Shown: positions 18,255-45,870, counted from the stretch's first letter. The stretch is DNA of 64,000 nucleotides from Bacteroidales bacterium (GCA_963665525.1 OY762280.1:705451-769450); one strand, 5' to 3'. The notes: generated from the sequence alone by a model not told the origin. Numbers and translations: made by a program.

Positions 18255-18271
18255 TGGCATACACCTAACTG
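18255..18271 (+). promoter_or_regulatory. Candidate sigma-54 -24/-12-like element upstream of FtsX permease 1
   Basis: TGGCATACACCTAACTG, 50 nt before the ATG. TGGCA matches the -24 box. The -12 GC is not canonical. Confidence 0.3.
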
Positions 18272-18304
18272 AAAAATTAGATTTATTCATTAAATTTATA
18301 GACC

Positions 18305-20692
18305 ATGTTTAGAAATTATTTAAAAATAGCTCAACGAAATATCTTAAAACGAAAAGTTTTTTCTTTAATCAACATCGTTGGTTTATCGGTTAGTATTGCT
18401 GTTAGTATTTTAATATTACTTTATGCTGTGCACGAATTATCATACGATAGTTATTATGATAATGTTGATGCTAAGTATCGTGTTGTTTCGCATGTAATAC
18501 ACGGTGAAGAAGAGTATACCAATAATGTATCGAATGGAACACTGGCAGGCGATATTTTAGAAATAATCCCTGGGGTTAAAAATGCTTTCCAGGTATATAT
18601 TGATTTTCCATATGTTCAGGTTGGTAATGAAACATATTTAGAAGACAATTATGATGTTTATTATGCCGGGGATGGAATATTTGATTTTTTTTCAGTAAAA
18701 TTCACTGAGGGGAATCCTGAAACGGCATTGAAAGAACCTTTTTCTATTGTTCTTACAGAGACCTATGCTCATAAATATTTTGGGGATTCATTAGTATTGG
18801 GTAAATCCTTATTGGTTAATTCAAAATTGGAATATAAAGTAACCGGAGTTGTAAAGGATTTACCTGAAAATACTCATTTTAAGTTTAATATCTTATTCTC
18901 CTTACCATCTCTTTTAAAGACTTATGGTTTAAATGATTATCATCCATTTAGAAATTCTTTTATAACTTATGTTGAATTCTCACACAATGAGAATATTGAA
19001 CAAGTTGAGAAAAAGATAACAGAAATTTCATTGAGTTATTTACCTCCTCAATTAAAAGAAATGATTACTGTTTGGAAAACTTTACAGCCAATAAAAGATA
19101 TTCATTTAAAATCTGATTTTGAAGATAAATACAAGGGAGGAAATATTAAAATTATCTATATTTTCTCATCCATTGCCATATTAATATTACTACTTGCATG
19201 TATTAATTATATTAACTTATCTACTGCCCAATATTCTTCAAGAACAAAAGAGGTTGCTATAAGAAAAACAACAGGAGCGAACAGGAGTAGTCTGGTTAAG
19301 CAATTTATTACTGAATCGGTTATAATAATATTACTAAGTTTAGCAACAGCAATCGTTATTGCCGAATTTTTCTTGCCAATATTTAATACAATTATAAATT
19401 TCCAATTAAAAATAGCATATTTCGAGAAATGGTATAATGTACTTCTTATTCTGGGAGTAGGATTTCTTGTAAGTTTGATTTCATCGCTATATCCTGCATT
19501 TTATCTTTCGTCATTTAAAGTTGTTGATGTATTTAAAATGAAAATTCGTATTGGTAAAGGAAATATTAACATTCGAAGAGTTCTGGTTGTATTTCAATTT
19601 ACTGTGACTGTTTTTTTGATTATTAGTACTTTAATAATTAGTAAGCAGCTTAATTATGTGAATAATAAAGATTTGGGATTTAATAAAAATAACTTAATGA
19701 CTGTTAGGCTAAATAATAAACAGGCTATTAGTCAATTAGAAGTATTAAAAAATGAAATTGAAAATCTTTCTTGTGTTCATTCATCTACAGTTAGTTCTAA
19801 TTTTCCAAGTGGTACAGCTAGTTGGGAGAATATATTTGAATTTGAAGGCCATGAAAGTGAGCAATTTGATGTAATGCCATTATTAGATGTTGATTATAAT
19901 TTCTTAGAAACAATGCAAATTAGTTTATCTAGAGGGCGAAATTTTTCTACAGAATTTTTTACTGATTCAAATGCAGTATTAGTTAATGAAACTTTGGTTA
20001 AATTAATGAATTGGAAAGAACCAATAGGGAAGAAAATTATTGAGAGAGTTGAAGATAAGACTTATACATATCACGTGATTGGAATTTTTAGGGATTATCA
20101 TAAGGAATCGTTACATTCTGCTGTGAAGCCAATGATGCTTAGGTTAGCGCAGAGAAAAAGATATTTGTTGGTTAGATTGACTCATGATTTTTCAGAAGAA
20201 AATATTCAAGAGATAAAAGCAGTTTGGGATAAGTTTTGTCCAGGCAAACCTTTTCAAAATATTTTCATTGACGATGCCTTTGATAGGCTATATCAATCAG
20301 AAAGAAATTTATCAAATATTTTTATTTACTTTTCGGTTATTGCAATAATCATAGCATGTTTGGGACTATTAGGTTTAATAACTTTGTTTACTCAACAAAA
20401 AACAAAAGAAATATCTATTAGAAAAATACTTGGTGCAAAAGCTTCTAATATAACATTGATATTAACCAAGGAGTTTATTATACTTCAACTTATTGCTAAT
20501 GTAATAGCAATGCCTGTTGCTTATTTTGCTATGAACAAATGGCTGGCTGGTTTTACTTTTCATGTTAAAATTGGCTGGCTTGTTTTTGTATTAGGAGCCG
20601 TGATAACAGCTATTATTTCTATTGCAGCAATTAGTATTCAAACTTATAAAGCTGCAGTTTCTAATCCATCAGAAAACCTTCGTTACGAGTAG
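18305..20692 (+). CDS. MacB/FtsX-family permease 1, double FtsX module (about 8 TM, two periplasmic domains), no ATPase domain
   Basis: 795 aa. Family-typical N-terminus (YLKIAQRNILKRKVFSLINIVGLSVSIAV...ELSYDSYY). TM1 + ~240-aa loop + 3 TM, repeated once. C-terminus NPSENLRYE. Confidence 0.85.
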   Translation: MFRNYLKIAQRNILKRKVFSLINIVGLSVSIAVSILILLYAVHELSYDSYYDNVDAKYRVVSHVIHGEEEYTNNVSNGTLAGDILEIIPGVKNAFQVYIDFPYVQVGNETYLEDNYDVYYAGDGIFDFFSVKFTEGNPETALKEPFSIVLTETYAHKYFGDSLVLGKSLLVNSKLEYKVTGVVKDLPENTHFKFNILFSLPSLLKTYGLNDYHPFRNSFITYVEFSHNENIEQVEKKITEISLSYLPPQLKEMITVWKTLQPIKDIHLKSDFEDKYKGGNIKIIYIFSSIAILILLLACINYINLSTAQYSSRTKEVAIRKTTGANRSSLVKQFITESVIIILLSLATAIVIAEFFLPIFNTIINFQLKIAYFEKWYNVLLILGVGFLVSLISSLYPAFYLSSFKVVDVFKMKIRIGKGNINIRRVLVVFQFTVTVFLIISTLIISKQLNYVNNKDLGFNKNNLMTVRLNNKQAISQLEVLKNEIENLSCVHSSTVSSNFPSGTASWENIFEFEGHESEQFDVMPLLDVDYNFLETMQISLSRGRNFSTEFFTDSNAVLVNETLVKLMNWKEPIGKKIIERVEDKTYTYHVIGIFRDYHKESLHSAVKPMMLRLAQRKRYLLVRLTHDFSEENIQEIKAVWDKFCPGKPFQNIFIDDAFDRLYQSERNLSNIFIYFSVIAIIIACLGLLGLITLFTQQKTKEISIRKILGAKASNITLILTKEFIILQLIANVIAMPVAYFAMNKWLAGFTFHVKIGWLVFVLGAVITAIISIAAISIQTYKAAVSNPSENLRYE

Positions 20693-20693
20693 T

Positions 20694-22046
20694 TTAAAAT
20701 GATAAAGTAAAGGTCGTATTTGAATTTTGCTCCGATTGAACAGAAATACTACCTCCATGTAATCGCATAATTTGTTGAGCAAGGCTTAGTCCAATTCCTG
20801 AGCCTTGTTCTTTCGTTGTAAAAAACGGAATAAATATCTGATCCATAATATCTTTTGGAATTCCTGCGCCATTATCGCTAATTTCTAAATGGGGTTTACC
20901 TTTATGATTAATAAATGCTCTTAAGTTAATTTGCCCAGATTTTCCTGAAACTGCATCTACCGAGTTTTTTATCAGATTAATAAAAGTTTGTTCAATGTAT
21001 CTTTTATCAGCATTAATCTCCAGATCAATTGGTAAAATACTGATGTTAAGCTTAATTTCTTTTGTCTCAAGTTTTTCTTTTAACAAGAGTTCCAGGTTAT
21101 AAAAAAGCTCGGCAACTTTAAATCTCTCAAAGTTCATTGTTTTAAGAGAAGAAATACTACGGTAGTTATTTACAAAATCAACCAATCCTTCACCTCGTTT
21201 AGTTATGATGTGTAGACCTTCGGTTGTTTTTGAAATGATATGATCTGTAATTTCGGTTTTTGTGATAGCCCTGTTTTGTTCTTTTATAAAAAGCTTTTCT
21301 AATGAATTGGATAAAGAGGTAATAGGAGATATGGTATTGTTAATTTCGTGTGTTAGTATTCGAATTAATTTATGCCACGATTCGATTTCTTTTTCACTAA
21401 GTTCTGTTTCTATATTTTGAAACGAAACTAGTTTTAACTGATCATTCTTGATTTTAAATTCTGAAATTTTTATGGACAGTGGTAATGCTTTTGTTTGGCC
21501 TTTAATCATCATTGATTTCTCATCTCCAGAATGACTGTTCTTTAAAAAATGATAGAAATTAGGATGAATATTTTCAATTTCTTCAATCTGGTGTATCTTT
21601 TTTATATTAAGAAGCTCGGTAGCACTTTTATTAATTAAATCAACATGACCCGAACTATTAATTGTAATAATTCCTGTTTGTGCATGCTCTATAACCGTTT
21701 TATAATATGACTGTTGGATTTCTTTTAATTCGGTTATATTAAATAACTGATCTCTGATATAGTTAATATTATTTTGAAATTCTTGATTGATATAAGGAAA
21801 TACTTTATCGTGAAATGCAAACGAAGCATCTTGAGTTTTTAGTGCAGCAAAAAAGTTTACAATTTCGCGGTTAAAACGATTGATATATTTTAAAAGCAAA
21901 CCAATTTGCACGATTAGTAAAGCGATCAGGCTGAGTACTGTAAAAAGTTTTTCTGGATTACGAAAAAACGGAACAATGCTAATGCATGTTACAAGGATGA
22001 GAATTATCCTTACCAGTATGTTGATATAAAAATTTTTACTTAACAC
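20694..22046 (-). CDS. Sensor histidine kinase (module 2), short-loop 2-TM type
   Basis: 450 aa with a GTG start. TM1 NILVRIILILVTCISIVPFF, loop RNPEKLFT, TM2 VLSLIALLIVQIGLLLKYI. H-box ILTHEINNTISPI, G-boxes ISDNGAGIP and GSGIGLSLAQQIMRLHGG. Confidence 0.9.
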   Translation of the reverse strand: MLSKNFYINILVRIILILVTCISIVPFFRNPEKLFTVLSLIALLIVQIGLLLKYINRFNREIVNFFAALKTQDASFAFHDKVFPYINQEFQNNINYIRDQLFNITELKEIQQSYYKTVIEHAQTGIITINSSGHVDLINKSATELLNIKKIHQIEEIENIHPNFYHFLKNSHSGDEKSMMIKGQTKALPLSIKISEFKIKNDQLKLVSFQNIETELSEKEIESWHKLIRILTHEINNTISPITSLSNSLEKLFIKEQNRAITKTEITDHIISKTTEGLHIITKRGEGLVDFVNNYRSISSLKTMNFERFKVAELFYNLELLLKEKLETKEIKLNISILPIDLEINADKRYIEQTFINLIKNSVDAVSGKSGQINLRAFINHKGKPHLEISDNGAGIPKDIMDQIFIPFFTTKEQGSGIGLSLAQQIMRLHGGSISVQSEQNSNTTFTLSF

Positions 22047-22048: not shown

Positions 22049-23410
22049 TTATAAATTGTATTTTTTAATCTTATTATATAATGTTTGACGTGTTAATCCT
22101 AATTCTTTGGCAGCATCTATCATCTTACCGGAATTATTAGCTAAAGCTCTTTGTATAGCTGTTTTTTCAATTTCTTCAAATTTTAACGGCCATTCCGATG
22201 ATGTTTGCACAGATTTAAGCATAAAATCGCTGGGCTGTAATGTATTGCCAGCACACAAGATAACTGCTTTTTCTATCGTATGCTTAAGTTCGCGGATATT
22301 GCCAGGCCAAGCGTAGGATTGCAATGTATTTATTGCATTATGACTTAATTTCAAGAAAGGCTTTTCGTATTTTGTTGTGAATATCTTTAAATAATATTCG
22401 GCGATTGGAATTATATCATCTTCTCTTTGTCGTAGTGGTGGAAGTTCAATTTGTAACGTATTTATTCGATAATATAAATCTTCACGAAATAAACCTTCCT
22501 GAATGAGCTTGTCAAGATTCTTATTAGTTGCTGAAATTAATCTTACATCAATTTCTGTTGATGAGTTGCTTCCTATTGGAGTTATAGTTTTATTTTGCAG
22601 AGCAGTTAGCATTTTGGCTTGTAGTGAGGTAGGGATATTCCCAATTTCGTCTAAGAATAAAGTGCCTTTATTGGCAATTTCAAATCTGCCTGTACGGTCT
22701 TCTTTTGCATCGGTAAAAGATCCTTTTTTATGTCCAAAGAGCTCACTTTCAAATAATGTTTCAGGAATAGATCCTAAATCTATGCCTATCATAGGGTTAG
22801 ATTTTCGCTTCGATTTTCTATGGATTTCTTTGGCGATAAGTTCTTTACCTGTTCCGTTCTCGCCCAGTATAAGAACATTTACTTCGGTTCCTGCAACTTT
22901 CTCAATCAGATCAAAAACCTCTTTCATTTTAGATGAGAATCCAATGATCTTTTCGGTGGGTTTATTTATTTCATTGCTTAATGTATCTTTTTCTTTCGAA
23001 AGTTTCTTAATCTCTAGTTGCGATTCCCTGATCTTTAAAGCAGACCTTAAGGTGCTTATTAGTTTTTCGTTATTCCATGGTTTGATTACAAAATCAGTAG
23101 CTCCTTCTTTAATGGCTTTAACTGCTAAATCAACATCTCCATAAGCTGTTATGAAAATTACAATCGCATTTTCGTCTGCTTTAAGTATTTCATGTAACCA
23201 AAATATTCCTTCATTTCCGGTATTTAATCCTGCCGAGAAATTCATATCAAGAAGAATAACATCATACTCTTCTTTTTTGTATTCAGATAAAAGAGAATTG
23301 GGATTAGATATTGTTTTGACGACCTCAAATTCGTTATCTAATAATATTTTTAATGAACGTAAGATGTTTTTATCATCATCTACAATTAATATCTTACCTT
23401 TAGATAGCAT
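22049..23410 (-). CDS. Sigma-54-dependent response regulator (NtrC family), module 2
   Basis: 453 aa. Receiver (ILIVDDD...VILLDMNF), GENGTGKE, GSFTDA, LFLDEIG, HTH LGLTRQTLYNKIKKYNL. Confidence 0.9.
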   Translation of the reverse strand: MLSKGKILIVDDDKNILRSLKILLDNEFEVVKTISNPNSLLSEYKKEEYDVILLDMNFSAGLNTGNEGIFWLHEILKADENAIVIFITAYGDVDLAVKAIKEGATDFVIKPWNNEKLISTLRSALKIRESQLEIKKLSKEKDTLSNEINKPTEKIIGFSSKMKEVFDLIEKVAGTEVNVLILGENGTGKELIAKEIHRKSKRKSNPMIGIDLGSIPETLFESELFGHKKGSFTDAKEDRTGRFEIANKGTLFLDEIGNIPTSLQAKMLTALQNKTITPIGSNSSTEIDVRLISATNKNLDKLIQEGLFREDLYYRINTLQIELPPLRQREDDIIPIAEYYLKIFTTKYEKPFLKLSHNAINTLQSYAWPGNIRELKHTIEKAVILCAGNTLQPSDFMLKSVQTSSEWPLKFEEIEKTAIQRALANNSGKMIDAAKELGLTRQTLYNKIKKYNL

Positions 23411-23455
23411 TATATACTTAAAAATTGAATTGAACGTAAAATAAATTTACCTAAA

Positions 23456-23472
23456 TGTAAAAATATTTTACA
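23456..23472. promoter_or_regulatory. Inverted repeat TGTAAAA-ATA-TTTTACA (TGT-N11-ACA) in divergent region 2
   Basis: 7-nt perfect arms with a 3-nt spacer, about 65 nt upstream of the candidate -24/-12 element at 23537. Confidence 0.35.
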
Positions 23473-23536
23473 TTTTAAAAAAGTTTAATTAATTGAGTGA
23501 GGTTTAAAGCGCAGATTATCAATGAATAAATTATGT

Positions 23537-23553
23537 TGGCATTTTTATTGGCA
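23537..23553 (+). promoter_or_regulatory. Candidate sigma-54 -24/-12-like element upstream of FtsX permease 2
   Basis: TGGCATTTTTATTGGCA, 52 nt before the ATG. TGGCA is at -24. TTGGC stands in place of TTGC, so the GC is offset by 1 nt. Confidence 0.35.
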
Positions 23554-23588: not shown

Positions 23589-26006
23589 ATGTTACGCAAT
23601 TTTTTTAAAGTATCTATACGGAATCTAATTCGAAATAAGACCTACTCATTGATTAATATTCTGGGGTTATCAATTGGTATGGCCTGTAGTATCTTGATTT
23701 TTCTCTTCATCATGGATGAATTGAGCTATGATCGTTATCACGAAAAGTCAGATCAAATTTATAGAGTAGGTGTTGACGCAATGTTGCAGGGCAATGAAAT
23801 GAAAGCTTTTGTTACAGGCGCACCAGTGGGAAGAACCTTTGTAAATGAAATTCCGGAGTTTATTAATTCAGCCAGGGTAGTTCGGTTCGAAGATGTTACT
23901 ATTAAAACTGGTGATAAAAAGTTTACTGAAAATAATGCGTTTTTTGTTGATAGTACTTTTTTTGACATGTTTACTGTAGAATTTATTAGTGGGAATTCAG
24001 ATAAGGTACTAAATATGCCCCATACAATATTACTTACAGAATCGACAGCTAAAAAATATCTTGGAAGTGATGATGTTGTTGGGAAATCAATGAATATTGA
24101 GAACGAGGAATATCTTATTCAAGGAATAATTAAAGATTGTCCTGTAAACTCACATTTTCATTATAATATTCTGGTTTCTGCAGTAAGTGCTCCGTTTGCA
24201 AATTTTGAAACCTGGATGTCGAATGATTTTTCATATAACTATGTTTTGCTTGAGAAAGGAGCGGATAGTGAAAAGTTAACCGAGAAAATGTATGAAGTCT
24301 CTATGAAATATATAGGACCTGAGATAGAAGCAGTTTTTGGGACTTCTGCAGATAATTTAATAAATGTAGATGGTAATAGTTATGAATACGTATTGCAGCC
24401 CATAACCGACATCCATTTAAAATCGCATACTACATATGAAATAGAGCCAAACTCCAATATAGTTTACGTTTATACTTTTTCAATCATTGCAATATTTATT
24501 TTGTTTGTTGCTATTATAAACTTTATGAATCTTTCAACAGCACGTTCGGCAACAAGAGCTAAAGAGGTTGGTATTCGAAAAGTAGTTGGAGCCTTTAGGA
24601 TGAGTTTATTTAAACAGTTTCTTTTTGAGTCTATTGTTATGAGTGTTATTTCATTAATAATAGCTATGATTATTATTGAATCTGTGTTGTCTGTTTTCAA
24701 TAGTTTTACTTTAAAAGAATTAACCATCGGATATTTTTCAAACTTATACGTTTTACCTGCTCTTCTTTTATTGGCAATTGTTGTTGGTGTATTGTCAGGA
24801 TTATATTCTGCCAGCTATTTATCGTCAACAAAAATTCTGAATGTTATTAAGGGTAAAATTTTGTCTGGAAATACACACAGTTGGTTTAGAAGTTTCTTGG
24901 TGGTTTTTCAGTTTTCGGTTTCTATAGCTTTATTCATTTGTACTTTTATAATTTATAATCAGCTAAATCTTTTAAGAAATAAAGATGTTGGATTTAATAA
25001 AAAGAATATTGTTGTAATTGAAAATATGGGTGAATTAGGGAACTCGTATCAATCCTTTAAAGACGAATTAGAAGCTAATCCGATTGTTAGAAGTATAAGC
25101 ACTTCTAGTTCATTGCCGGCAAGAAGTATTGGAGGATTGCCATTGGCAATTGAAGGGGATGCTTCGAATAAAGTGTATGCGCCTAGGTTATTTGCTGTTG
25201 AAAACAGTTTTATGGAGTCATATGAACTTAAATTAAAAGAAGGAAGATTTTTTTCAGATGATTTAGCAAGTGATTCATTCGCTATTGTTCTTAACGAGGC
25301 TGCTGTTAAAGAGTTTGAATTGGAAGATCCTGTGGGTAAAAGACTGGTGACGAAATTTTATGGTCATGTTTTTCGTTGGAATATTATCGGAGTTGTTGAA
25401 GATTTTAATTACAGATCTTTTCACGATGATATTGATGGAGTTGTTTTAACATCGTTTGCAGTTAGTGTTCCAAGCTTGATATCAATTAAGCTTAATACTG
25501 AAATCAATGAAAGTTCATTAAAAACCATCAATAAAGTATGGGATAGTTTTGCAGAAGGAACCCCTATGGATTATTATATTATGGAAGATGATTTTGATAA
25601 TCTTCATAGCGAAGAGTTCAGAACCGGTGATATATTTGTTGTTTTTTCTATTCTGGCAATATTTATAGCATGTTTAGGATTGTTTGGTTTAGCTTCTTTT
25701 ATGGCAGAAAATAAAACCAAAGAGATAGGTATAAGAAAAGCACTGGGAGCATCAACTCGAAAAGTGGTAAGTATTTTAATCGTACAATTTACAAAATGGG
25801 TATTATGGGCAAATGTAATAGCTTGGCCTGTTGCCTATTTGTTTATGAATAATTGGTTGCAAAATTTTGAATATCGAGTAAAAATCCAATGGTGGGTGTT
25901 TATTGTATCAGCTATTTTGGGATTCTTTATTGCTATAACTACTGTTAGTTTCCAAGCTCTAAAAGCAGCAAGGGCAAATCCTGTGAATAGTTTAAGATAT
26001 GAGTAA
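23589..26006 (+). CDS. MacB/FtsX-family permease 2, double FtsX module, no ATPase domain
   Basis: 805 aa. N-terminus FFKVSIRNLIRNKTYSLINILGLSIGMACSILIFLFIMDELSYDRYH, two TM1-loop-3TM halves, C-terminus NPVNSLRYE. Confidence 0.85.
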   Translation: MLRNFFKVSIRNLIRNKTYSLINILGLSIGMACSILIFLFIMDELSYDRYHEKSDQIYRVGVDAMLQGNEMKAFVTGAPVGRTFVNEIPEFINSARVVRFEDVTIKTGDKKFTENNAFFVDSTFFDMFTVEFISGNSDKVLNMPHTILLTESTAKKYLGSDDVVGKSMNIENEEYLIQGIIKDCPVNSHFHYNILVSAVSAPFANFETWMSNDFSYNYVLLEKGADSEKLTEKMYEVSMKYIGPEIEAVFGTSADNLINVDGNSYEYVLQPITDIHLKSHTTYEIEPNSNIVYVYTFSIIAIFILFVAIINFMNLSTARSATRAKEVGIRKVVGAFRMSLFKQFLFESIVMSVISLIIAMIIIESVLSVFNSFTLKELTIGYFSNLYVLPALLLLAIVVGVLSGLYSASYLSSTKILNVIKGKILSGNTHSWFRSFLVVFQFSVSIALFICTFIIYNQLNLLRNKDVGFNKKNIVVIENMGELGNSYQSFKDELEANPIVRSISTSSSLPARSIGGLPLAIEGDASNKVYAPRLFAVENSFMESYELKLKEGRFFSDDLASDSFAIVLNEAAVKEFELEDPVGKRLVTKFYGHVFRWNIIGVVEDFNYRSFHDDIDGVVLTSFAVSVPSLISIKLNTEINESSLKTINKVWDSFAEGTPMDYYIMEDDFDNLHSEEFRTGDIFVVFSILAIFIACLGLFGLASFMAENKTKEIGIRKALGASTRKVVSILIVQFTKWVLWANVIAWPVAYLFMNNWLQNFEYRVKIQWWVFIVSAILGFFIAITTVSFQALKAARANPVNSLRYE

Positions 26007-27371
26007 TTAAAACGATAAAATAAAAGTTGTAGTGTAATTAGAATCGGAAGAAGATACAACATAGATATTACCATTGTGTAATCGCATAATTTGACGAGCA
26101 AGGCTTAACCCTATTCCGGAGCCTTGCTCTTTTGTTGTAAAAAATGGCATAAAAATTTCGTCGATAATTTCCTGGTTAATCCCTTTCCCGTTATCACTGA
26201 TTGTAATTAGTAATTGATTATTTTTATCTTTTGTTGAACTCATCTTTATCGAATTGGCATCTGCTTCAAGCGCATTTTTAATTAGATTAATAATGATTTG
26301 TTCTATTTGATTTTTATCAATAAGAATGTGCTCCGTTAAATGATCTTCAGGTATCTTAAATTCAATTTTTTTATTTTCGAATTCGTTTTTCCAGAATGAT
26401 TTTATGTTTTCAAATAAATCTTTAATGATGATCTTTTCAAAGTTAGGTTTTGGTAATTTTGAAATTGATCTGAATTTATCGACAAATTGTTGCAATCCAA
26501 TATTCCTTTCTTTTACTATCTTTAATCCTGATGAAATATCACTGATGATCTCGTTATTTAAATGATCTATCTGAACTATTTGGTTATTGTCAGGGTTGGT
26601 GATTAACTCATTTAAAGTATCTATGGTTGATGAAATAGGCCCGATAGAGTTCATTATTTCGTGACGCAGAGTATGCACCAGTTTTTGCCACGATTCCAGT
26701 TCTTTTTCATCTAATTCATTTTTAATATCATGTATAGAAACAATTCTTAATTTCTCATCTTGGGTTTTAAAATCTGCCGAACGAAGTATTAATTGCAGCA
26801 ACTCTTTGTTCGCATTATTCGAAAGTGTAATTTTAATTAATTTGTGTTCTGTAGGAGAAAGTGTTTTTAAAATCTCTGCAAAATTAGGGTGAAAAACATT
26901 GAGTTCTTTAATATTTACAATATTGTTAAGCTTGAATAGATCTTTTAAAGCTTTATTAGCAAGTTTTACACTTCCTTTTTCATTAAAACTTAACAAACCA
27001 ACATTGGCTAATTCTGTTATGGTTTGGAAGTACTGATTTTCGCGAGCGCTTTTTTCTTTCAGTTTTAATATTTGATTATTTACAGTTTGTAATCTTCGAC
27101 TGAGTCGCATATAATTTATATGCTGAAACTCATTGGTTAATAAAATTGAAGAATCATCGTATTTGAGTGAATCAAAAAAAGCAATTAAATCACGATTTAG
27201 GTAATTTAATCTTCTAATTAGCAATATAACCTGTATGATTAATGCTCCAACTATATTTATATTGATAATAATATCTTGAAACTTTTTATGAGCAAATGGT
27301 AGTAAAAAGCAAGTTGCAGCAATTAATATAACTCTGATAATAATATTATAATAAAGGTTTTTAAATATCAT
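26007..27371 (-). CDS. Sensor histidine kinase (module 3), short-loop 2-TM type
   Basis: The ORF track extends to 27407. I prefer the Met at 27371 (MIFKNLYYNIIIRVIL), which aligns with the HK4 start MIYKRFYFNIIIRIIL and recreates the 11-nt ATG...TAA overlap seen in modules 1 and 4. H-box TLRHEIMNSIGPI, G-boxes ISDNGKGI and GSGIGLSLARQIMRLHNG. Confidence 0.85.
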   Translation of the reverse strand: MIFKNLYYNIIIRVILIAATCFLLPFAHKKFQDIIININIVGALIIQVILLIRRLNYLNRDLIAFFDSLKYDDSSILLTNEFQHINYMRLSRRLQTVNNQILKLKEKSARENQYFQTITELANVGLLSFNEKGSVKLANKALKDLFKLNNIVNIKELNVFHPNFAEILKTLSPTEHKLIKITLSNNANKELLQLILRSADFKTQDEKLRIVSIHDIKNELDEKELESWQKLVHTLRHEIMNSIGPISSTIDTLNELITNPDNNQIVQIDHLNNEIISDISSGLKIVKERNIGLQQFVDKFRSISKLPKPNFEKIIIKDLFENIKSFWKNEFENKKIEFKIPEDHLTEHILIDKNQIEQIIINLIKNALEADANSIKMSSTKDKNNQLLITISDNGKGINQEIIDEIFMPFFTTKEQGSGIGLSLARQIMRLHNGNIYVVSSSDSNYTTTFILSF

Positions 27372-28734
27372 ATCTCTCAATTTTTCTGTATAAAGTCTGA
27401 CGACCAATATTTAATTCTTTCGCTGTTTCACTTATGTTCCAGTTATTTCTCTGGAGTGCATTTCTTATAATGATTTTTTCTCCATCTTCGAGCGAAATAA
27501 CTTTGTTAAGCTCATCACTCGTTGATACCTGTTTTTCGAAAAAGAAATCTTCAGTAGTTAATGTGTTTTCATTACATAGAATAACTCCTTTTTCTATGGT
27601 ATGTCTTAACTCGCGAATGTTTCCTGGCCATGAGTAAGTAATTATTTTTTCAATGGCTTTATTATTGATTTTTAGTCCTGGTTTATTATATCTTTTTGAA
27701 AATAAATCTAAAAAATGATTGGTAAGAATAAGAATATCTTCTTTTCTTTCCCTTAGTGGTGGTAGATATATTTGAATGGTATTAATTCGATATAACAAAT
27801 CTTCTCTGAAAAGATTTTCTACAATTAATTGATCTATATTTTTATTTGTAGCTGATATGAGCCTAACGTCGAGAGGTATTTTTGTATTAGAACCAACTTT
27901 AGAAATTTCTTTATTTTGTAATGCAGTTAAAAGTTTGGCTTGCATCGAAAATGATAGATTACCTATTTCGTCTAGAAATAGGGTTCCGCCCGAAGCTGCT
28001 TCAAATTTACCTGTTCTATCTTCTTTGGCATCAGTAAAAGCACCTTTGCAATGGCCAAAAAGCTCACTTTCAAAAAGAGTTTCTGTTAGCGAAGCCATGT
28101 CGATATTCATAAAAATCTCATTATTTCTTGACGAGAGCTGATGAATTCTTCTGGCTATAAGTTCTTTTCCTGTACCATTTTCTCCTAAAATTAAAACATT
28201 TGCATTGGTTTTGGCAACTTTGCTTACAGTACTTAAAACCTTATCCATTGCCGTTGAATTTCCTATTATAAAATCAAAATCCTGATTAATATTTTGTTTT
28301 AGGATGTGCTCTTTATTTTCAAGTTCTTTTACTTTTAATTTTGATTTCCGTAACTCAAAAGCTGCATTTAAAGTTGCCAGTAGTTTTTGATTATTCCATG
28401 GCTTTTCAATAAAATCAAATCCACCATTTTTTATGGCTTTTACGGCTAGTTCTGTATCTGCATATGCAGTTATTAAAATTGTTATGATTTCAGGATCTAT
28501 TCTTGAGATTTCATTTAACCAAAACAAGCCTTCGTTACCTGTATTTATTCCTGCTGAAAAATTCATATCCAGAAGAACAATATCAACATGATTTGATCTA
28601 ATGGTATGTTGAAGATTGCTAGGATTACTAATTGTTAAAACTTCGGTAAACTTGTATTTTAAAAATAATTTAAGTGAATTAAGAACACTTTGATTATCAT
28701 CCACAATAAGTATGGTTCCTTCTCTAATATCCAT
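27361..28734 (-). CDS. Sigma-54-dependent response regulator (NtrC family), module 3
   Basis: 457 aa. ILIVDDN...IVLLDMNF, GENGTGKE, GAFTDA, LFLDEIG, HTH LNIGRQTLYRKIERYDI. Confidence 0.9.
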   Translation of the reverse strand: MDIREGTILIVDDNQSVLNSLKLFLKYKFTEVLTISNPSNLQHTIRSNHVDIVLLDMNFSAGINTGNEGLFWLNEISRIDPEIITILITAYADTELAVKAIKNGGFDFIEKPWNNQKLLATLNAAFELRKSKLKVKELENKEHILKQNINQDFDFIIGNSTAMDKVLSTVSKVAKTNANVLILGENGTGKELIARRIHQLSSRNNEIFMNIDMASLTETLFESELFGHCKGAFTDAKEDRTGKFEAASGGTLFLDEIGNLSFSMQAKLLTALQNKEISKVGSNTKIPLDVRLISATNKNIDQLIVENLFREDLLYRINTIQIYLPPLRERKEDILILTNHFLDLFSKRYNKPGLKINNKAIEKIITYSWPGNIRELRHTIEKGVILCNENTLTTEDFFFEKQVSTSDELNKVISLEDGEKIIIRNALQRNNWNISETAKELNIGRQTLYRKIERYDI

Positions 28735-28761: not shown

Positions 28762-28790
28762 TTGTTTATTTTCATTGATTCAAAATATGT

Positions 28791-28807
28791 TGTATGATTT
28801 TGGAACA
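28791..28807. promoter_or_regulatory. TGT-N11-ACA dyad in divergent region 3
   Basis: TGTATGATTTTGGAACA. It overlaps a direct repeat ATGATTTTGGA (28794-28804 and 28816-28826). Confidence 0.3.
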
Positions 28808-28910: not shown

Positions 28911-28938
28911 TAATCATCTAAACCGAAAATTACTAGTT

Positions 28939-34205: not shown

Positions 34206-36569
34206 ATGATAAAAAATTATTTTAAAACAGCCATAAGAAACTTGTTACGTTACAAGTGGAACTCTTTATTTAACATCTTAGGATTGTCAATTGGAATTGC
34301 ATGTTTTATTTACATTTTATTTTTATTGAGGTTTGAACTAAAGTATGATAGCTTTCATAAAGATATTGAGAGGATTTATCGTATTCCTATGACATTGAAG
34401 GTTAAAGGACGAACAACTAACTATGCTGGTATGCCTAGTAAATATGGTAGGTATATAAAGAATAATTTTAGCGAGGTTGAGAAATTTGCCAGAATAAGAC
34501 CATCAACAACGACTATCTTCTCGTATCAGGATAAAAAGTTTATTGAGGAAAATTTTAAATATGTAGAACAAGATATCTTCGATATTTTCACATTTGAATT
34601 TATTAATGGAAATCAAAAAACAGCTTTGGTCAATCCTTTTACTGCAGTTATTACCGAAGAGATATCTGCTAAGTATTTTGGTGCAGAAAACCCAGTTGGA
34701 AAACTTATTAAAATTGATACTGCATTTTATGAAGTTACTGGGGTTATTAAAAAACTTCCTCGAAATTCCAGATTAAAACTCGATGTGTTTTTATCTTTTG
34801 TTACAGGAAACCCTGATCAACATGATGATTGGAGAGCAGGAGGTTTTTTGCATACCTTTATTAAATTAAAAGAAGGGATTAATCCAGATGAATTTAATAA
34901 GAAACTACTACAAGTTCCTGAAATAGTATCGGGTGAAACCCTTAAAGAGCAAGGAGAAGTAAATATACCATATCTTCAAGCTTTAAAAGATATTCATACG
35001 GATAATTCTATTGATTATACATGGGATACAGAACCAATTACAAACCCTACATATATTTATATTCTTTTTGTAACAGGTATATTTATTTTAATCATTGCCA
35101 GTTTAAATTTCATTAATCTATCAACAGCAAAATATATATCACGTTCAAAAGAAGTTGGTTTAAGAAAAGTATCGGGGGCTTCACGTTGGCAGTTAATTAT
35201 TCAATTTTTTGGGGAATCGGTTTTATTGGTTTTTATTGCTCATATTATAGGAATGTTTTTAGTAGAACTAAGTATTGATAAGTTTAACGAGATAACACAA
35301 ATTAATCTGGATGTCGATTATAGTTCTCTGTTTATATGGATTATTATAATTGGGTTGATTTTATTTATAGGGATTATTGCAGGAAGTTATCCTGCATTTC
35401 TATTATCTTCATTCAACCCTGTTAATATTTATAATAATAAAGCTGGACGTAAAAGAGGAAGCAGCCTAAGAAAGATACTGGTAATCATTCAATATACAGT
35501 AACAATAATTCTGATAATTGGTACAACGTTTATTATTAAACAAGTCAATTTTATGGTTAACGCTCCTTTGGGTTTTAATAAAGAGCAAAAACTGATTGTT
35601 GAATTTCCTCGTGAGTTATTGAATATAAATAGTTATAAAGCTGTTAAAAATGAGTTCAACGAAATTCCTGGAGTATATTCAACTTGTTTTTCGTCAAGCG
35701 TTCCCGGAAGATGGCGTTATAAGTGGAGAATATGGGCTACTGGCGAAGAAGAGATGTCTAAACATATTTATTGCACTCAGGTTGATAATGACTATTTTGA
35801 TGTTTATGATATTAAGCTATTAAAAGGAGAGAAATATTTTATAGAAAATACAAGAGATACTGATTGGATATTGAATGAATCGGCAATGAAAATTTATGGA
35901 TGGAATATTGATTCAGTTTTGTATCAATCGTTACAAGGAAGACATAATATTAAAGCTGTTGTTAAAGATTACCATTTTGAAGGTTTACAGAAAAAGATTG
36001 AACCTTTAGCTTTCTTTCATATTAGTGATGATATTCGTTATTTGACAATTCAGTTAGAAAAAGGAAATACAGGTCAGCAATTAGCACGTGTTAAAGAGAA
36101 GTATCTGGCATTATATCCTGATTTAGTTTTCAATTACTTTTTTCTTGATCAAGATTTTGAAAGGCAGTATCAAGCAGAAAAACGTATTGTTAAACTGTTT
36201 TCAATATTTACAACAATAGGTTTAATCATAGCGATAATAGGAATATTTGGGTTGGCAGTGTTTATGTGTCAACAAAAAGAAAAAGAAATTGGAATTCGAA
36301 AAGTGAATGGAGCTTCAAGTTGGGATATATTCAAGCTTTTATCTTTCGATTTTTCTAAATGGATTTTCATATCCTTTGTTATTTCTATTCCAATTGTGTA
36401 TTGGGGAGTAAGTATTTGGATTAAAAACTTTGCTTATCAGGTTAATGTTTCTTGGTTTGTGATCTTATTATCAGGCATTTTAGCTTGGTTGATTGCTATA
36501 CTAACCATATCTTATCAGGCATTAAGGTCGGCACGAAAAAATCCTATTGAGTCATTGAGATACGAATAA
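34206..36569 (+). CDS. MacB/FtsX-family permease 4, double FtsX module, no ATPase domain
   Basis: 787 aa. N-terminus YFKTAIRNLLRYKWNSLFNILGLSIGIACFIYILFLL, two TM1-loop-3TM halves, C-terminus NPIESLRYE. Confidence 0.85.
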   Translation: MIKNYFKTAIRNLLRYKWNSLFNILGLSIGIACFIYILFLLRFELKYDSFHKDIERIYRIPMTLKVKGRTTNYAGMPSKYGRYIKNNFSEVEKFARIRPSTTTIFSYQDKKFIEENFKYVEQDIFDIFTFEFINGNQKTALVNPFTAVITEEISAKYFGAENPVGKLIKIDTAFYEVTGVIKKLPRNSRLKLDVFLSFVTGNPDQHDDWRAGGFLHTFIKLKEGINPDEFNKKLLQVPEIVSGETLKEQGEVNIPYLQALKDIHTDNSIDYTWDTEPITNPTYIYILFVTGIFILIIASLNFINLSTAKYISRSKEVGLRKVSGASRWQLIIQFFGESVLLVFIAHIIGMFLVELSIDKFNEITQINLDVDYSSLFIWIIIIGLILFIGIIAGSYPAFLLSSFNPVNIYNNKAGRKRGSSLRKILVIIQYTVTIILIIGTTFIIKQVNFMVNAPLGFNKEQKLIVEFPRELLNINSYKAVKNEFNEIPGVYSTCFSSSVPGRWRYKWRIWATGEEEMSKHIYCTQVDNDYFDVYDIKLLKGEKYFIENTRDTDWILNESAMKIYGWNIDSVLYQSLQGRHNIKAVVKDYHFEGLQKKIEPLAFFHISDDIRYLTIQLEKGNTGQQLARVKEKYLALYPDLVFNYFFLDQDFERQYQAEKRIVKLFSIFTTIGLIIAIIGIFGLAVFMCQQKEKEIGIRKVNGASSWDIFKLLSFDFSKWIFISFVISIPIVYWGVSIWIKNFAYQVNVSWFVILLSGILAWLIAILTISYQALRSARKNPIESLRYE

Positions 36570-38452: not shown

Positions 38453-38495
38453 ATGTCCGAAATTGTGCAAAAGCTGTTCAGTTTCGGGCATTTTT
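38453..38495 (+). terminator. Candidate intrinsic terminator after the T9SS cargo gene
   Basis: 10-bp stem ATGTCCGAAA (38453-38462) / TTTCGGGCAT (38482-38491) with one G-U pair and a 19-nt loop, followed by TTTTT. Confidence 0.5.
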
Positions 38496-38547: not shown

Positions 38548-38564
38548 TGGCATAAAATGTGATA
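38548..38564 (+). promoter_or_regulatory. Candidate sigma-54 -24/-12-like element upstream of FtsX permease 5
   Basis: TGGCATAAAATGTGATA, 110 nt before the ATG. This is farther from the start than in the other five copies, and the -12 box is weak. Confidence 0.25.
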
Positions 38565-38657: not shown

Positions 38658-41042
38658 ATGCTTAAAAACCTTTTTAAAACTGCTATAAGAAATATATTTA
38701 AGGACTTTGGTTATAGTAGTTTAAATATTCTTGGTTTAACACTTGGAATTGCCAGTGCCTTATTTTTAATTATTTATATTGCTGATGAAATTAGTTATGA
38801 TAAATACCACGAAAATGCTGAACGTATTTATCGAGTGGCATCACACATAACAGAAACCGATGATGAATTTACCTGGATTGTTGCTCAAGTTCCTTTTGCA
38901 CCTCAAGTTGTACAGGATTATCCAGAAGTTGAGCATTCGGTTCGTTTTATTGATAACGGGCGCGAATTATTTAAATACGAGGATAAAGAGTTTTATGAAG
39001 AGAGTTTCTTTTACACAGATTCTAACGTTTTTGATGTTTTTACATACGAATTTATCAAAGGTAATCCTGTTGATGCTTTAACTGAACCAAACAACATAGT
39101 TTTAACAGAAACAGTTGCCGCAAAATATTTTGGTAAAGAAGATCCAATAGGTAAATCATTAGTAAATAGGGATGATACTTATAAAGTAACAGGAGTAATT
39201 AAGGATGTTCCTAATAATTCTCACTTTCGTTTCGAAGGCTTAATGTCAAGAAGTAGTTTACCTCCGGATTTTGGAAATTCATGGGGAAATTTTGGAGTTT
39301 TTACTTATTTGCTTTTGCCCGAACATGTAGATTATAAGGTTTTTGAGAGTAAGATACAGGAAATGTATGGAAAATATATGGCCGAGATTTTTGAACGAAT
39401 GGGAATTAAAATAGAGTATGTATTAGATCCAATTACAGATATTCATTTAAAATCTACATATCAAGGAGAACCTGAACCAACAGGGAGTTATGCTTATGTA
39501 ATAATATTTGCAATTGTTGCTTTATTCTTAATACTAATTGCAGCTATGAATTATATGAATCTGGCCACAGCTCGATCTACCAAACGTGCTCGTGAGGTTG
39601 GTTTAAGAAAAGTGGTTGGTTCTCATCGAGGTAGTTTAATATTTCAGTTTTTAACTGAATCAACAGTTTTAACATTTATTTCATTGTTGCTGAGTATAAT
39701 ACTCTTAATTCTTTTGTTGCCATACTTTAATCAATTGGCAGGTAAATCATTTAATATTGATGTTTTATATAGTCCGGTAGCAATTATAAGTATTGTATCA
39801 GTAATTGTTGTCGTAGGTATAATTGGGGGAAGTTATCCTGCTTTTTATTTATCGAAATTTAACCCCGTTATTGTGTTTAAGGGAGAAGTAACAAAAGGAT
39901 CTTCAGGAAGCATGTTTAGAAAAGTTTTAGTTGTGATTCAGTTTACGATATCGGTTGCCATGATTGTATCAACTTTGGTTGTTTATAAACAATTGAATTA
40001 TTTAAAAACAAAAGATTTGGGTTATGATATGGATAACGTTGTTAGTCTTGAGTTTACAACTCGACAAATGGTTGATAAATATCCAGTGCTAAAACAAGCA
40101 TTACTCGAAAATCCGAATATAAAATATGTAGGTTCAACAGGGACAAGAGTAGGAGAAGGTTCTGGGAAAGTAATTCTGAATGTTGAGACAGAAGATGGTA
40201 TGCAAGAAAGAGGAATTAACCTGGCAAGTGTTGATCATGATTTTATTGAGGCATTAGGAATTACAATGAAAGAAGGGAGAGATTTCCAGGAAAACATGCC
40301 ATCTGATACTCTTCTGGGAGTTATTGTAAATGAAACCATGGCAAAACGCTTGAATTGGGAAAATCCAATAGGAAAAAGAGTTGAGATGGAAGGTAGAGGA
40401 GGTCAGGAATTTCTTAGAGCTACAGTTGTTGGTGTTATGAAAGATTTTCACCAAACAGGAATGTATAACGAAATAGAAACAATCTTATATTTTTATCGTG
40501 TTAATAACCGTTTGGTTTACATAAAACTTACCGACGCTTCAGTTCAGGAAACAATAAAATTTATTGAGAATGCCTGGAATGAAGTATTTCCTGAACAGCC
40601 ATTTGAATATTCGTTTTTATCGGATAGATTTAATGAACAGTTTGGTGCTGACGAAAAAAGGGGCTTTATTTTTACTTTATTTACTGTACTGGCAATATTG
40701 ATAGCATGTTTAGGCTTGTTTGGATTAGCTTCGTATACCGTTGAACAACGTACTAAGGAAATTGGAATCAGAAAAGTTGTTGGCGCTAGTGAAGGAACTG
40801 TAGTGAAGTTAATTTCTCGAGAATTTTTAATACTGGCAACGATTTCAATTCTAGTAGCATTCCCATTATCTTTTTATTTTATGCGCGACTGGTTACAACA
40901 ATTTGTGTATAGAACTAATTTAGGATTATTTGTGTTTATAATTGCGGGATTAATTACAATAACGATAACTTTTATAACAATTAGCTATCAGGCATGGAAA
41001 GCAGCAAATGCTAATCCTGCAGAGTCGTTACGGGTAGAATAA
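38658..41042 (+). CDS. MacB/FtsX-family permease 5, double FtsX module, no ATPase domain, no adjacent two-component system
   Basis: 794 aa. N-terminus LFKTAIRNIFKDFGYSSLNILGLTLGIASALFLIIYIADEISYDKYH, two TM1-loop-3TM halves, C-terminus NPAESLRVE. Confidence 0.85.
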   Translation: MLKNLFKTAIRNIFKDFGYSSLNILGLTLGIASALFLIIYIADEISYDKYHENAERIYRVASHITETDDEFTWIVAQVPFAPQVVQDYPEVEHSVRFIDNGRELFKYEDKEFYEESFFYTDSNVFDVFTYEFIKGNPVDALTEPNNIVLTETVAAKYFGKEDPIGKSLVNRDDTYKVTGVIKDVPNNSHFRFEGLMSRSSLPPDFGNSWGNFGVFTYLLLPEHVDYKVFESKIQEMYGKYMAEIFERMGIKIEYVLDPITDIHLKSTYQGEPEPTGSYAYVIIFAIVALFLILIAAMNYMNLATARSTKRAREVGLRKVVGSHRGSLIFQFLTESTVLTFISLLLSIILLILLLPYFNQLAGKSFNIDVLYSPVAIISIVSVIVVVGIIGGSYPAFYLSKFNPVIVFKGEVTKGSSGSMFRKVLVVIQFTISVAMIVSTLVVYKQLNYLKTKDLGYDMDNVVSLEFTTRQMVDKYPVLKQALLENPNIKYVGSTGTRVGEGSGKVILNVETEDGMQERGINLASVDHDFIEALGITMKEGRDFQENMPSDTLLGVIVNETMAKRLNWENPIGKRVEMEGRGGQEFLRATVVGVMKDFHQTGMYNEIETILYFYRVNNRLVYIKLTDASVQETIKFIENAWNEVFPEQPFEYSFLSDRFNEQFGADEKRGFIFTLFTVLAILIACLGLFGLASYTVEQRTKEIGIRKVVGASEGTVVKLISREFLILATISILVAFPLSFYFMRDWLQQFVYRTNLGLFVFIIAGLITITITFITISYQAWKAANANPAESLRVE

Positions 41043-44834: not shown

Positions 44835-45763
44835 TGAGAAAAATAGTAATATTTATTCTAGTTGGATTTTCTTTTATAAATATTAATGCTCAAACAAATA
44901 TTGATTATTGTGGGCAAAAAGTGCCTGGAAAAATACCAGAGCTATTTGCCAAGGGAATTGTTTCTTCGAATAATCAGGAACATAGTTTACTTTGTATTTC
45001 GCAAGATGGAACAGAAATGTGGTGGAGTATTTGGGACTTACCCTATTCACCTGAAAGTGTGCAAAAAATATATTTTATAAAAAAAGAAGATGGGAAATGG
45101 CAACAGGCACAGTTAGCTCCATTTAGTGGAAAATACAGGGATGGAGGACCATTTTTAAGTTATGATGGGAATAAGTTATTCTTTTACTCTAGAAGACCTA
45201 TTATGCATGATTCTTTAGTAAACGATAATGATATTTGGTATATTAATCGAACTAAAGATGGATGGAGTGAGCCTGTAAATGCTGGTAATATTATAAATAC
45301 TGATTTTGTTGAGGCTAATCCTGTGCTGGTAAAGAATAACAATCTGTATTTTACGTCAAATCGAGATGGTAATCCTGATATTTATTTATCAAAGTTTATT
45401 AATGGAGATTATACCAAACCTGTAAAACTGAGCGAAAATATCAATACTAGAGATGCCCGCGAAATGTTCTTTACCGTTTCTCCTGATGAAAGCTTTATCA
45501 TATTTACTCGTGATGACAGAAAATTTTCAACTGAAGGAGAGTTATTAGGAGGCGACAGGAATTTAATGATCAGTTTTAAAAATGAAGATGGAAGTTGGGG
45601 ATATGCAAAAGATATGGGGAGTATTTTTAATGATAAAAAGGCTCGATTTCCAAGTTTATCACCCGATGGTAAGTATTTGTTTTTTACTCGTTATACTGAA
45701 GGTAATGATGAGGACTTTTATTGGGTTGATGCTAACATCATTAGAACCCTGAAGACAGAGTAG
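44834..45763 (+). CDS. Periplasmic PD40 (TolB-like beta-propeller repeat) protein, paralog 4
   Basis: 309 aa. Signal peptide. GQKVPGKIPELFAKGIVSS, TVSPDESFIIFTRDD, SLSPDGKYLFFTRY, FYWVDANIIRTLK. TAATG 1-nt overlap with the upstream gene. Confidence 0.65.
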   Translation: MRKIVIFILVGFSFININAQTNIDYCGQKVPGKIPELFAKGIVSSNNQEHSLLCISQDGTEMWWSIWDLPYSPESVQKIYFIKKEDGKWQQAQLAPFSGKYRDGGPFLSYDGNKLFFYSRRPIMHDSLVNDNDIWYINRTKDGWSEPVNAGNIINTDFVEANPVLVKNNNLYFTSNRDGNPDIYLSKFINGDYTKPVKLSENINTRDAREMFFTVSPDESFIIFTRDDRKFSTEGELLGGDRNLMISFKNEDGSWGYAKDMGSIFNDKKARFPSLSPDGKYLFFTRYTEGNDEDFYWVDANIIRTLKTE

Positions 45764-45853
45764 TACATAATTGAACATTTATGTCCAAAAACGTACACTT
45801 TTAAAAGATTTCAAACATTTATAATTAACTTAAAGTCAATCAAATAGATCTTT

Positions 45854-45870
45854 TGGAATATAGTTTGATT
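45854..45870 (+). promoter_or_regulatory. Candidate sigma-54 -24/-12-like element upstream of FtsX permease 6
   Basis: TGGAATATAGTTTGATT, 49 nt before the ATG. GG at -24, and TTGA in place of TTGC at -12. Confidence 0.3.

Follow-up and report, generated by a model that had tools for sequence, protein, structure and literature searches.

Relaxed -24/-12 elements, probably sigma-54-type promoters, upstream of six paralogous FtsX permease genes in a Bacteroidales bacterium

Two-component systems encoded beside an FtsX-family permease, which they presumably induce, are well known from the BceRS-BceAB detoxification modules of Bacillota, several paralogous copies of which occur per genome. NtrC-type systems that drive transporter genes are likewise textbook, and a link between FtsX genes and sigma-54 (RpoN) was reported computationally in 2025. 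That survey (Carrera-Reyna et al., PLoS One 2025; PMC12316311) is purely computational and predicts that sigma-54 controls FtsX-like ABC permeases (COG0577) in Bacteroidia, Opitutia and Gammaproteobacteria; these permeases are found to be enriched for sigma-54 promoters in Bacteroidia, which is called the first such evidence, the class-specific matrices are stringent and centred on TGGCAC-N5-7-TTGCT, and non-consensus promoters are stated to be missed. Here we describe a 64,000-nucleotide stretch of DNA from a Bacteroidales bacterium (GCA_963665525.1 OY762280.1:705451-769450; hereafter the window, with a G+C content of about 31%) in which six FtsX permease genes, designated FX1 to FX6, are each preceded by a short element of the form TGGYAT-N5-TnG. 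The locus concerns the same gene family, putative sigma factor and bacterial class as the survey, whereas its boxes score no higher than 7.8 bits against a canonical matrix for sigma-54, and the survey is not known to cover private two-component modules arranged in tandem.

In our reading, to which we assign a probability of roughly 0.78, the six elements are sigma-54-type -24/-12 promoters of six paralogous MacB-like permease genes, and their -12 half is relaxed. The six open reading frames (ORFs), of about 790-805 amino acids, are spread over 15.4-48.3 kb of the window. Pfam scans of FX1, FX5 and FX6 detected both MacB_PCD and FtsX in duplicate in each protein; the six proteins are mutually 30-38% identical, as expected of old paralogs, and FX2 to FX4 were assigned by this identity. 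Each of FX1 to FX4 faces a divergent, minus-strand operon encoding an NtrC-type response regulator (RR1 to RR4) and a histidine kinase (HK1 to HK4). Neither an ABC ATPase gene nor a fusion-protein gene adjoins any of the six permease genes in the window. As in the BceRS-BceAB case, several paralogous modules are present; unlike that case, the regulators appear to be of the sigma-54-dependent NtrC type and not of the OmpR type, the permeases are duplicated MacB_PCD+FtsX proteins of about 800 amino acids, and the adjacent ATPase is missing from the window.

The pattern and position of the elements were observed directly. A first-pass annotation of the same DNA had listed a TTGG- or GTGG-containing string ahead of every FtsX gene and proposed that these strings were sigma-54 promoters. 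All six strings are where it had placed them, each occurring once, and they lie 50, 52, 45, 37, 110 and 49 nt before the ATG of FX1 to FX6, so that five of the six do fall at 37-52 nt, FX5 being the outlier. Its remarks that G occupies position 14 in all strings but one, and that a -12 GC is properly placed only at 34169 and off by one at 23537, also hold for the strings as it had registered them. Five of these registers were retained, and that of FX1 was shifted by 11 nt. In L175 (L-numbers denote loci from relatives that were compared with the window), a 67% FX1 ortholog that retains the regulator and kinase, the columns under the annotated TGGCAT read TAGCGC, and 11 bases upstream gGGCAT is aligned with the window's cGGAAT, giving the L175 box gGGCAT-GGCTT-TAGC. 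Because this alignment puts the -24 box 11 bases upstream of the annotated hexamer, the FX1 promoter is predicted to span 18244-18259, with its -24 GG at 18245-18246, and the TGGCAT at 18255 is its -12 half. A position weight matrix (PWM) trained on 12 sites from relatives only, with no FX4 ortholog among them (the lineage matrix), agreed, scoring 9.3 bits (rank 41) in the corrected register and 3.6 bits (rank 409) in the earlier one. With FX1 re-registered, GG-N10-G is present in all six boxes; the full GC occurs only at FX1 and FX4, and FX3, FX5 and FX6 have GA in its place. The elements are also more frequent at these genes than expected by chance: TGG[ACT]A[CT] was found at -130 to -15 of 6/6 FtsX genes and 7/29 other ORFs, and the same hexamer followed by N7-G, which places G at position 14, at 5/6 and 2/29 respectively (Fisher p=0.0004), both exceptions sitting within neighbouring coding sequence.

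To assess conservation, we compared orthologous spacers at protein identities of 52-93%. These have otherwise diverged, and the box is retained for FX1, FX2, FX3, FX5 and FX6, mostly at a similar distance from the ATG (Table 1). The divergent arrangement of regulator, kinase and permease is kept in FX2 orthologs at 79, 69, 67, 57, 55 and 52% identity, and regulator, permease and box persist together in orthologs over the range 52-79%. An alignment of five FX2 spacers (79-67% identity; about four of them independent, L085 and L086 being identical) contained only two invariant islands, the inverted repeat AAATGTAAAA-N3-TTTTACATTT and the box itself, and the FX2 boxes of the window, L082, L084, L085, L087, L089 and L090 all lie 49-54 nt before the ATG. 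The second TGGCAT at FX2 stands one base further out in the window than in the orthologs and forms a 12-nt direct repeat there; as an alternative -24 box it was rejected, with 8.1 bits on the lineage matrix compared with 10.5 and no support from the orthologs. The 69% ortholog of FX3 (L089/L178) retains TTTTTGGTATA..ATTgG, which reads TGGTAT-AGCAT-TGGCA. The proposal that the two permeases without an adjacent two-component system would also be under sigma-54 is likewise supported by the comparison: the FX5 box recurs in three orthologs and, as in the window, far upstream of the ATG, and the FX6 box was found in two of three.

The six window sites and another fourteen from relatives, 20 in total, were compared with 85 published sigma-54 sites from E. 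coli, Desulfomicrobium, rhizobia, Bacillus and others (S2 table of PMC12316311). All 20 sites, which are phylogenetically non-independent, have GG at positions 2-3 and a G twelve bases further on (GG-N10-G, 20/20), which is the exact spacing of sigma-54 promoters. The remainder of the -24 half is canonical, with T at position 1 in 18/20, C or T at position 4 in 8 and 9 of the 20, A at position 5 in 19/20 and T at position 6 in 17/20. Within the -12 half, only T(-15), at position 12 (17/20 here, 59/85 in the reference set; Fisher p=0.27), and the invariant G(-13), at position 14 (20/20 and 83/85; p=1), are retained. The pattern shared by the sites is TGGYAT-N5-TnG, with no TTGC-type -12 box. 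In the four regulator-linked promoters the -12 half is often TGGCA or TAGCA, a near-repeat of the -24 box. Published sites with G(-13) kept and C(-12) replaced by A or T include E. coli pspA (TTGTA) and rhizobial nifH (TTGAA); there these are occasional exceptions, whereas here non-C is the majority across a paralog family and its relatives.

Whether these boxes are recognized in a genome scan depended on the matrix. The lineage matrix ranked FX4 1, FX3 6, FX6 10, FX2 21, FX5 34 and FX1 41 among 127,962 positions. A canonical matrix of 19 columns, built from the 85 published sites, was rejected as a discriminator, on account of weak box scores and top window matches that were all intragenic, and the string TGGCAY-N5-TTGC is absent from every FX spacer. 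The check by PWM that had been suggested at the outset came out differently with the two matrices, the generic one wrongly rejecting the sites and the lineage one supporting them. The canonical matrix alone would have dismissed all six boxes, which footprinting of orthologous spacers recovers, and for this reason sigma-54 regulons in AT-rich Bacteroidota are probably under-predicted.

The domain architecture of the regulators is consistent with such promoters. All four contain Response_reg, Sigma54_activat (E=1e-66 to 1e-67), AAA_lid_14 and HTH_8 domains by Pfam, which together with the adjacent kinase places them in the NtrC family. They are mutually 49-56% identical, and RR2 aligned over its full length with the Aquifex NtrC-family structures 4l4u (E=7e-85), 3dzd and 1ny5. 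The L1 loops, which contact sigma-54, deviate from GAFTGA in all four, yet retain the F-T core (Table 1); orthologs have G[AS]FTDA or GSFTGA, with GSFTGA in the RR1 ortholog, and the distant regulator of L168 has G[AS]FTDA. GAFTDA and GSFTGA are listed among natural variants compatible with activation in Desulfovibrio (PMC4641369), GSFTDA and GSFTSA are absent from that list, and the effect of a G-to-D change in the loop was left open elsewhere (PMC10714721). Covariation of the loop variant with the -12 sequence was considered and dropped, there being no clean pattern in the few available cases.

Each of the four regulator-linked spacers also contains a repeat that may be the binding site of its own regulator. 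The RR1 repeat, which overlaps the -7 box of RR1 and lies in a stretch conserved in L175, has its centre about 73 bp before the FX1 GG. The RR2 repeat is about 74 bp upstream of the FX2 GG, and its arms, invariant in the five aligned sequences, are present in L087, L089 and L090. The RR3 repeat lies about 87 bp upstream of the FX3 GG and is nearly identical in the 69% ortholog, and the RR4 repeat lies about 83 bp upstream of the FX4 GG. Since these repeats overlap the -7 boxes of the regulator operons, they may also mediate autoregulation. Private repeats combined with a common box fit a scheme in which each module has its own activator and all of them use one sigma factor. Between the arms of the FX4 repeat, the 15 nt at 34078-34092 are TGGCACCTATTGTCG, a canonical -24 hexamer lacking a usable -12; its TGGCAC was rejected as a promoter at 0.3 bits on the lineage matrix.

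On the inference that sigma-54 binds the boxes and the activators bind the repeats, and with start sites predicted from the sequence, we propose the following model. At FX1 to FX4, the membrane histidine kinase would phosphorylate its NtrC-type response regulator, whose own operon would be read in the opposite direction from a usual sigma-A promoter of Bacteroidota. The regulator would oligomerise on its paralog-specific repeat, about 73-87 bp upstream of the box, and its ATP-driven remodelling would open the closed complex of sigma-54 holoenzyme on TGGYAT-N5-TnG, such that transcription would start about 11-35 nt before the ATG. FX5 and FX6 would require an unlinked activator. The predicted leaders of FX1 to FX6 are 35, 26, 19, 11, 84 and 23 nt.

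The housekeeping sigma-A promoter of Bacteroidota consists of a -33 TTTG and a -7 TAnnTTTG. The first-pass annotation had reported no such -7 box in front of the four permease genes that it checked, and this absence extends to all six: no TAnnTTTG was found on the plus strand within about 190 nt of any FX start codon. The sole plus-strand occurrence, TACTTTTG at 28741, lies in the FX3 spacer about 200 nt upstream, abutting the RR3 start. Near the FX start codons there are only one-mismatch TAnnTTTA boxes, at 18278 and 18291 for FX1 and at 28905 for FX3. Exact boxes do occur, as had been noted for three of the four regulator operons, on the minus strand 20-35 nt before RR1 (18170), RR3 (28754) and RR4 (34043); upstream of RR2 there is only TACATTTA and no exact TAnnTTTG.

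Compared with NtrC-activated sigma-54 promoters (glnAp2/NtrC, zraP/ZraR, Aquifex NtrC1, NtrC4), the locus has in common a GG-N10-G(C) core and TGGCAY -24 box, a divergent or adjacent activator with receiver, AAA+ Sigma54_activat and Fis-type helix-turn-helix domains, repeats about 70-90 bp upstream, and the lack of a sigma-70-type promoter at the target gene. It differs in having a relaxed -12 half of the form TnG(n), loops that are G[AS]FT[DS]A and not GAFTGA, and candidate enhancers at 73-87 bp compared with the usual 100-150 bp.

Similar sites were found in other lineages. Scans of a collection of genome and metagenome contigs gave only relatives of 33-41% identity, which served as a family-wide control and not as orthologs. 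An NtrC-type regulator was present in the flank of 2 of 160 distantly related FtsX loci (L073 and L168), each of which has, ahead of the operon, a canonical -24 box combined with a -12 box lacking C: in Balneola L073, TGGCAC-AGTAA-TTGA lies before a regulator-linked operon (600-7821) comprising a 418-aa ORF, a 229-aa ORF and two FtsX permeases, and in L168 the regulator-linked operon stands behind TGGCAC-GATCT-TGGT. Among 250 FtsX-family genes without a flanking regulator, 12 canonical matches of at least 10 bits were found at -42 to -87 on the sense strand, several of them with TTGA or TTGT, compared with 0 on the antisense strand and 1 in the coding control. A looser regular expression gave 22 valid matches, 18 of them at -39 to -90 (p=2e-6), and 10 of the 14 matches without C at -12 fell in the same interval (p=0.0025). 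Given this positional clustering in unrelated lineages, sigma-54 promoters at this distance appear to recur across the permease family, with non-C at -12 common among them. The canonical expression GG.A-N6-..GC was set aside after yielding 5 matches at 69 distant FtsX loci, only one of which (L076) was convincing. About 5% of the regulator-less permease genes (L001-L080, L092-L171), from Aminicenantes, KSB1, Ignavibacteria, Bacteroidota and others, have strong sigma-54-type boxes at -42 to -87, and an identical string, TGGCATATTTATTGCA, occurs in five of these loci.

Taken together, regulator architecture, conserved islands, the fixed GG-N10-G core, the sites in other phyla and the missing sigma-A box make sigma-54 promoters the best supported reading. 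Several observations count against it. On the canonical matrix the boxes score -0.8 to 7.8 bits, at ranks 21-359 of about 128,000 positions, and all matches in the window above 7.9 bits, which outrank them, are intragenic. The -12 half departs strongly from the reference sites, with T at position 13 (-14) in 10/20 compared with 82/85 (Fisher p=1e-6) and C at position 15 (-12) in 6/20 compared with 76/85 (p=2e-7), figures to be read with the knowledge that the 85 reference sites were aligned by consensus, which inflates their apparent conservation; the shared descent of the 20 sites is a further caveat. At FX2 the GC lies one base too far out in both the window and L082, and altered -24/-12 spacing would be expected to be poorly tolerated. 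The window lacks an activator gene for FX5 or FX6, and none of its ORFs scanned against Pfam has the sigma-54 domains that would mark an rpoN gene. The FX6 box is gone from L173, a 68% Tenuifilaceae ortholog, and the FX1 box from L174, a 65% ortholog in a different context with no regulator. Finally, the sigma-54 promoters of Flavobacterium psychrophilum have been described as typical -24/-12.

Other explanations of the boxes were weighed against the same data. They could be operators of a shared DNA-binding protein, direct repeats of 11-bp period (TGGYAT-N5-TGGYAT) lying beside or overlapping an unrecognised promoter. The near-identical hexamers 11-12 bp apart at FX2 (TGGCAT/TGGCAT), FX4 (TGGTAT/TGGCAA), L089 (TGGTAT/TGGTAT) and L085 (TGGCAT/TGGTAT) would be accounted for in this way, as would degenerate -14 and -12 positions that are unusual for sigma-54. 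However, FX5- and FX6-type sites have no repeated hexamer, their second half being [GCT]TGAT; in more distant relatives the corresponding position is taken by canonical TGGCAC-N5-TTGC or TTGA; and the regulator-specific elements differ among paralogs, whereas the box is common to all. NtrC-type regulators also need a sigma-54 promoter within reach, and the spacers hold no other candidate. We regard operators as improbable. A promoter of the sigma-70 family, whether extended -10-like (TGnTATAAT), ECF-type or with a degenerate -7 box, with the regulators acting elsewhere, seems slightly less probable still. Several sites (FX4, FX3, L172, L085) read TGGTATAAT or TGGTATAAG, the former resembling an extended -10, and the one-mismatch -7 boxes at FX1 and FX3 lie nearby, but the invariant bases are G3 and the G 11 further on, not the T/A/T of a -10 box, with position 4 being C in 8/20 and positions 7-9 variable. 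The -7 box of Bacteroidota sigma-A is TAnnTTTG, as found at three of the regulator operons, and a generic sigma-70 scan gave 44 matches, fewer than the 53.9 in shuffled sequence.

That the six matches reflect chance similarity in AT-rich spacers, with no common function, is the least credible of these explanations and very improbable. The pattern is short and was derived post hoc, both strands of the window together contain 185 copies of TGG[CTA]AT, and the canonical scores resemble background. Chance is contradicted, however, by the enrichment at FtsX genes over other ORFs, the conserved islands in orthologous spacers, the high ranks obtained with an externally trained matrix and the clustering of sites at -39 to -90 in unrelated lineages.

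If the boxes are sigma-54 promoters, a more speculative and rather doubtful extension is that the FtsX-permease promoters of the FCB group and neighbouring phyla constitute a distinct sigma-54 subclass in which only GG-N10-G is fixed, the -12 GC is dispensable and, in this clade, the -12 half is a near-copy of the -24 hexamer. Such promoters might be matched to activators with a G[AS]FTDA loop in place of GAFTGA. Were this true, generic matrices would systematically under-call sigma-54 regulons in AT-rich Bacteroidota, and the four-module tandem array would amount to an extensible set of exporters, each tightly gated and specific for its ligand. More conservatively, the proposed wiring of about 30 kb of this genome, from an uncultured Bacteroidales-like organism, is one in which four private sensor-regulator pairs would each gate one MacB-like permease through sigma-54, with two further permeases, FX5 and FX6, dependent on that sigma factor as well. 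Arrangements of this NtrC-type/sigma-54 kind are standard, and the biological novelty is modest; mildly unusual are a -12 half that is systematically relaxed, the presence of four private modules in tandem and the G[AS]FT[DS]A loops.

Table 1. Features of the FtsX permease locus and boxes in orthologs. Positions are those of the window, except for values preceded by a minus sign, which are distances from the ATG in the ortholog. TSS, predicted transcription start site.
Feature	Position	Strand	Description
FX1 box	18244-18259	+	cGGAAT-AAGAT-TGGCA; GC at 18257-18258; TSS about 18270
FX2 box	23537-23552	+	TGGCAT-TTTTA-TTGGC; TSS about 23563
FX3 box	28894-28909	+	TGGTAT-AAGAT-TAGAT; TSS about 28920
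FX4 box	34169-34184	+	TGGTAT-AATGT-TGGCA; correctly spaced GG-N10-GC (GC at 34182-34183); TSS about 34195
FX5 box	38548-38563	+	TGGCAT-AAAAT-GTGAT; TSS about 38574
FX6 box	45854-45869	+	TGGAAT-ATAGT-TTGAT; TSS about 45880
FX1	18305-20692	+	duplicated MacB_PCD+FtsX permease
FX2	23589-26006	+	duplicated MacB_PCD+FtsX permease, by paralogy
FX3	28939-31308	+	duplicated MacB_PCD+FtsX permease, by paralogy
FX4	34206-36569	+	duplicated MacB_PCD+FtsX permease, by paralogy
FX5	38658-41042	+	duplicated MacB_PCD+FtsX permease
FX6	45903-48317	+	duplicated MacB_PCD+FtsX permease
RR1	16776-18140	-	NtrC-type response regulator (bacterial enhancer-binding protein), L1 loop GSFTSA
RR2	22049-23410	-	NtrC-type response regulator, L1 loop GSFTDA
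RR3	27361-28734	-	NtrC-type response regulator, L1 loop GAFTDA
RR4	32649-34022	-	NtrC-type response regulator, L1 loop GAFTDA
HK1	15452-16786	-	histidine kinase downstream of RR1; HATPase_c (Pfam)
HK2	20694-22046	-	histidine kinase downstream of RR2; HATPase_c (Pfam)
HK3	26007-27407	-	histidine kinase downstream of RR3; 32-39% identical paralog
HK4	31310-32659	-	histidine kinase downstream of RR4; 32-39% identical paralog
Candidate RR1 site	18148-18195		nested inverted repeat (I1), 22-nt arms, 82% complementary
Candidate RR2 site	23453-23475		perfect inverted repeat (I4), AAATGTAAAA-N3-TTTTACATTT, 100% complementary
Candidate RR3 site	28788-28829		20-nt direct repeat (D1), TGTTGTATGATTTTGGAACA / TGGTGGATGATTTTGGATCA
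Candidate RR4 site	34064-34106		perfect 14-nt inverted repeat, AATTGTATAAAATA-N15-TATTTTATACAATT
FX2 box, window and L082			TGGCAT-TTTTA-TTGGCAT
FX2 box, L084			TGGCAT-TTTGT-TAGCAT
FX2 box, L085			TGGCAT-TTTTT-TGGTAT
FX2 box, L087			TGGTAT-ATTTT-TGGCT
FX2 box, L089			TGGTAT-TAAGT-TGGTA
FX2 box, L090			TGGCAT-TCGCC-TTGAA
FX5 box, L172 (79%)	-113		TGGTAT-AAATT-CTGAT
FX5 box, L085 (77%)	-169		TGGTAT-GGTGT-GTGTA
FX5 box, L178 (82%)	about -153		TGGTTC-GGATT-TTGAT
FX6 box, L178 (93%)	-47		TGGAAT-ATGGT-TTGAT
FX6 box, L172 (74%)	-57		TGGTAT-AATGT-TTGAA

A few further sequence features were noted in the spacers. Part of the FX3 promoter region (28896-28913) is repeated 60 nt upstream (28836-28853) at 89% identity, lacking the GG, and this repeat is not kept in the orthologs. 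FX1 (18275-18289) and FX3 (28902-28916) have a 15-mer, ATTAGATTTAWTCAT, in common, in different registers relative to the box; kept in neither ortholog, it was rejected as a shared element. Motifs resembling TGTCCGAAA or CGTACAC lie before FX5 and FX6 in the window (38453-38491 and 45782-45798), in L172 (2800-2850 and 9850-9900) and in L173 (about 9830-9870). They were not adopted as an FX5/FX6 enhancer, as they largely coincide with terminator-like hairpins behind the preceding genes, such as that at 38453-38491 of the window, which is followed by a T-run and has equivalents in L085 and L178. A search of the whole window against Rfam gave no match.

RR2 has an exact counterpart on a 232-kb contig of the ENA metagenome assembly ERZ21869602. 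Among named organisms, the nearest relatives of the window FtsX proteins are from metagenome-assembled genomes labelled "Bacteroidales bacterium", and only three FX1 orthologs above 40% identity were present in the protein collection. The gene order in L178 is FX2-FX3-FX5-FX6, with neither the FX1 nor the FX4 module. In relatives (L082, L085 and L178, compared with window 12211-18140) an M3-like peptidase gene abuts the HK2/RR2-FX2 module, and in the window an S41 peptidase gene and the entire HK1/RR1-FX1 module separate the two. An RND efflux operon (AcrB-like, HlyD-like and outer-membrane factor; region 1901-7728) lies upstream of the array. FX5 and FX6 neighbour genes for a T9SS-tailed protein, an ankyrin protein and PD40-repeat proteins; an AraC/GyrI-like regulator (53152-54084) is encoded about 5 kb downstream of FX6, and one directly follows the FX6 ortholog in L172. 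In L173, a sigma-54-like site, TGGCAA-AGGAT-TTGCT (14.5 bits), precedes a DUF4352 gene, and TGGCAA-GGTTA-TTGTG (9.6 bits) follows closely behind the permease gene, ahead of a small ORF and an ABC ATPase gene (sites at 7492 and 12638). The neighbours of the FX1 ortholog in L174 (5977-16033) include a radical-SAM enzyme, LytTR/HisKA genes, a C39-peptidase ABC exporter and an AprE/HlyD-like protein, with no two-component system; the locus resembles a cluster for the export of a peptide (bacteriocin or RiPP), a context that hints at a peptide-related role for these permeases.

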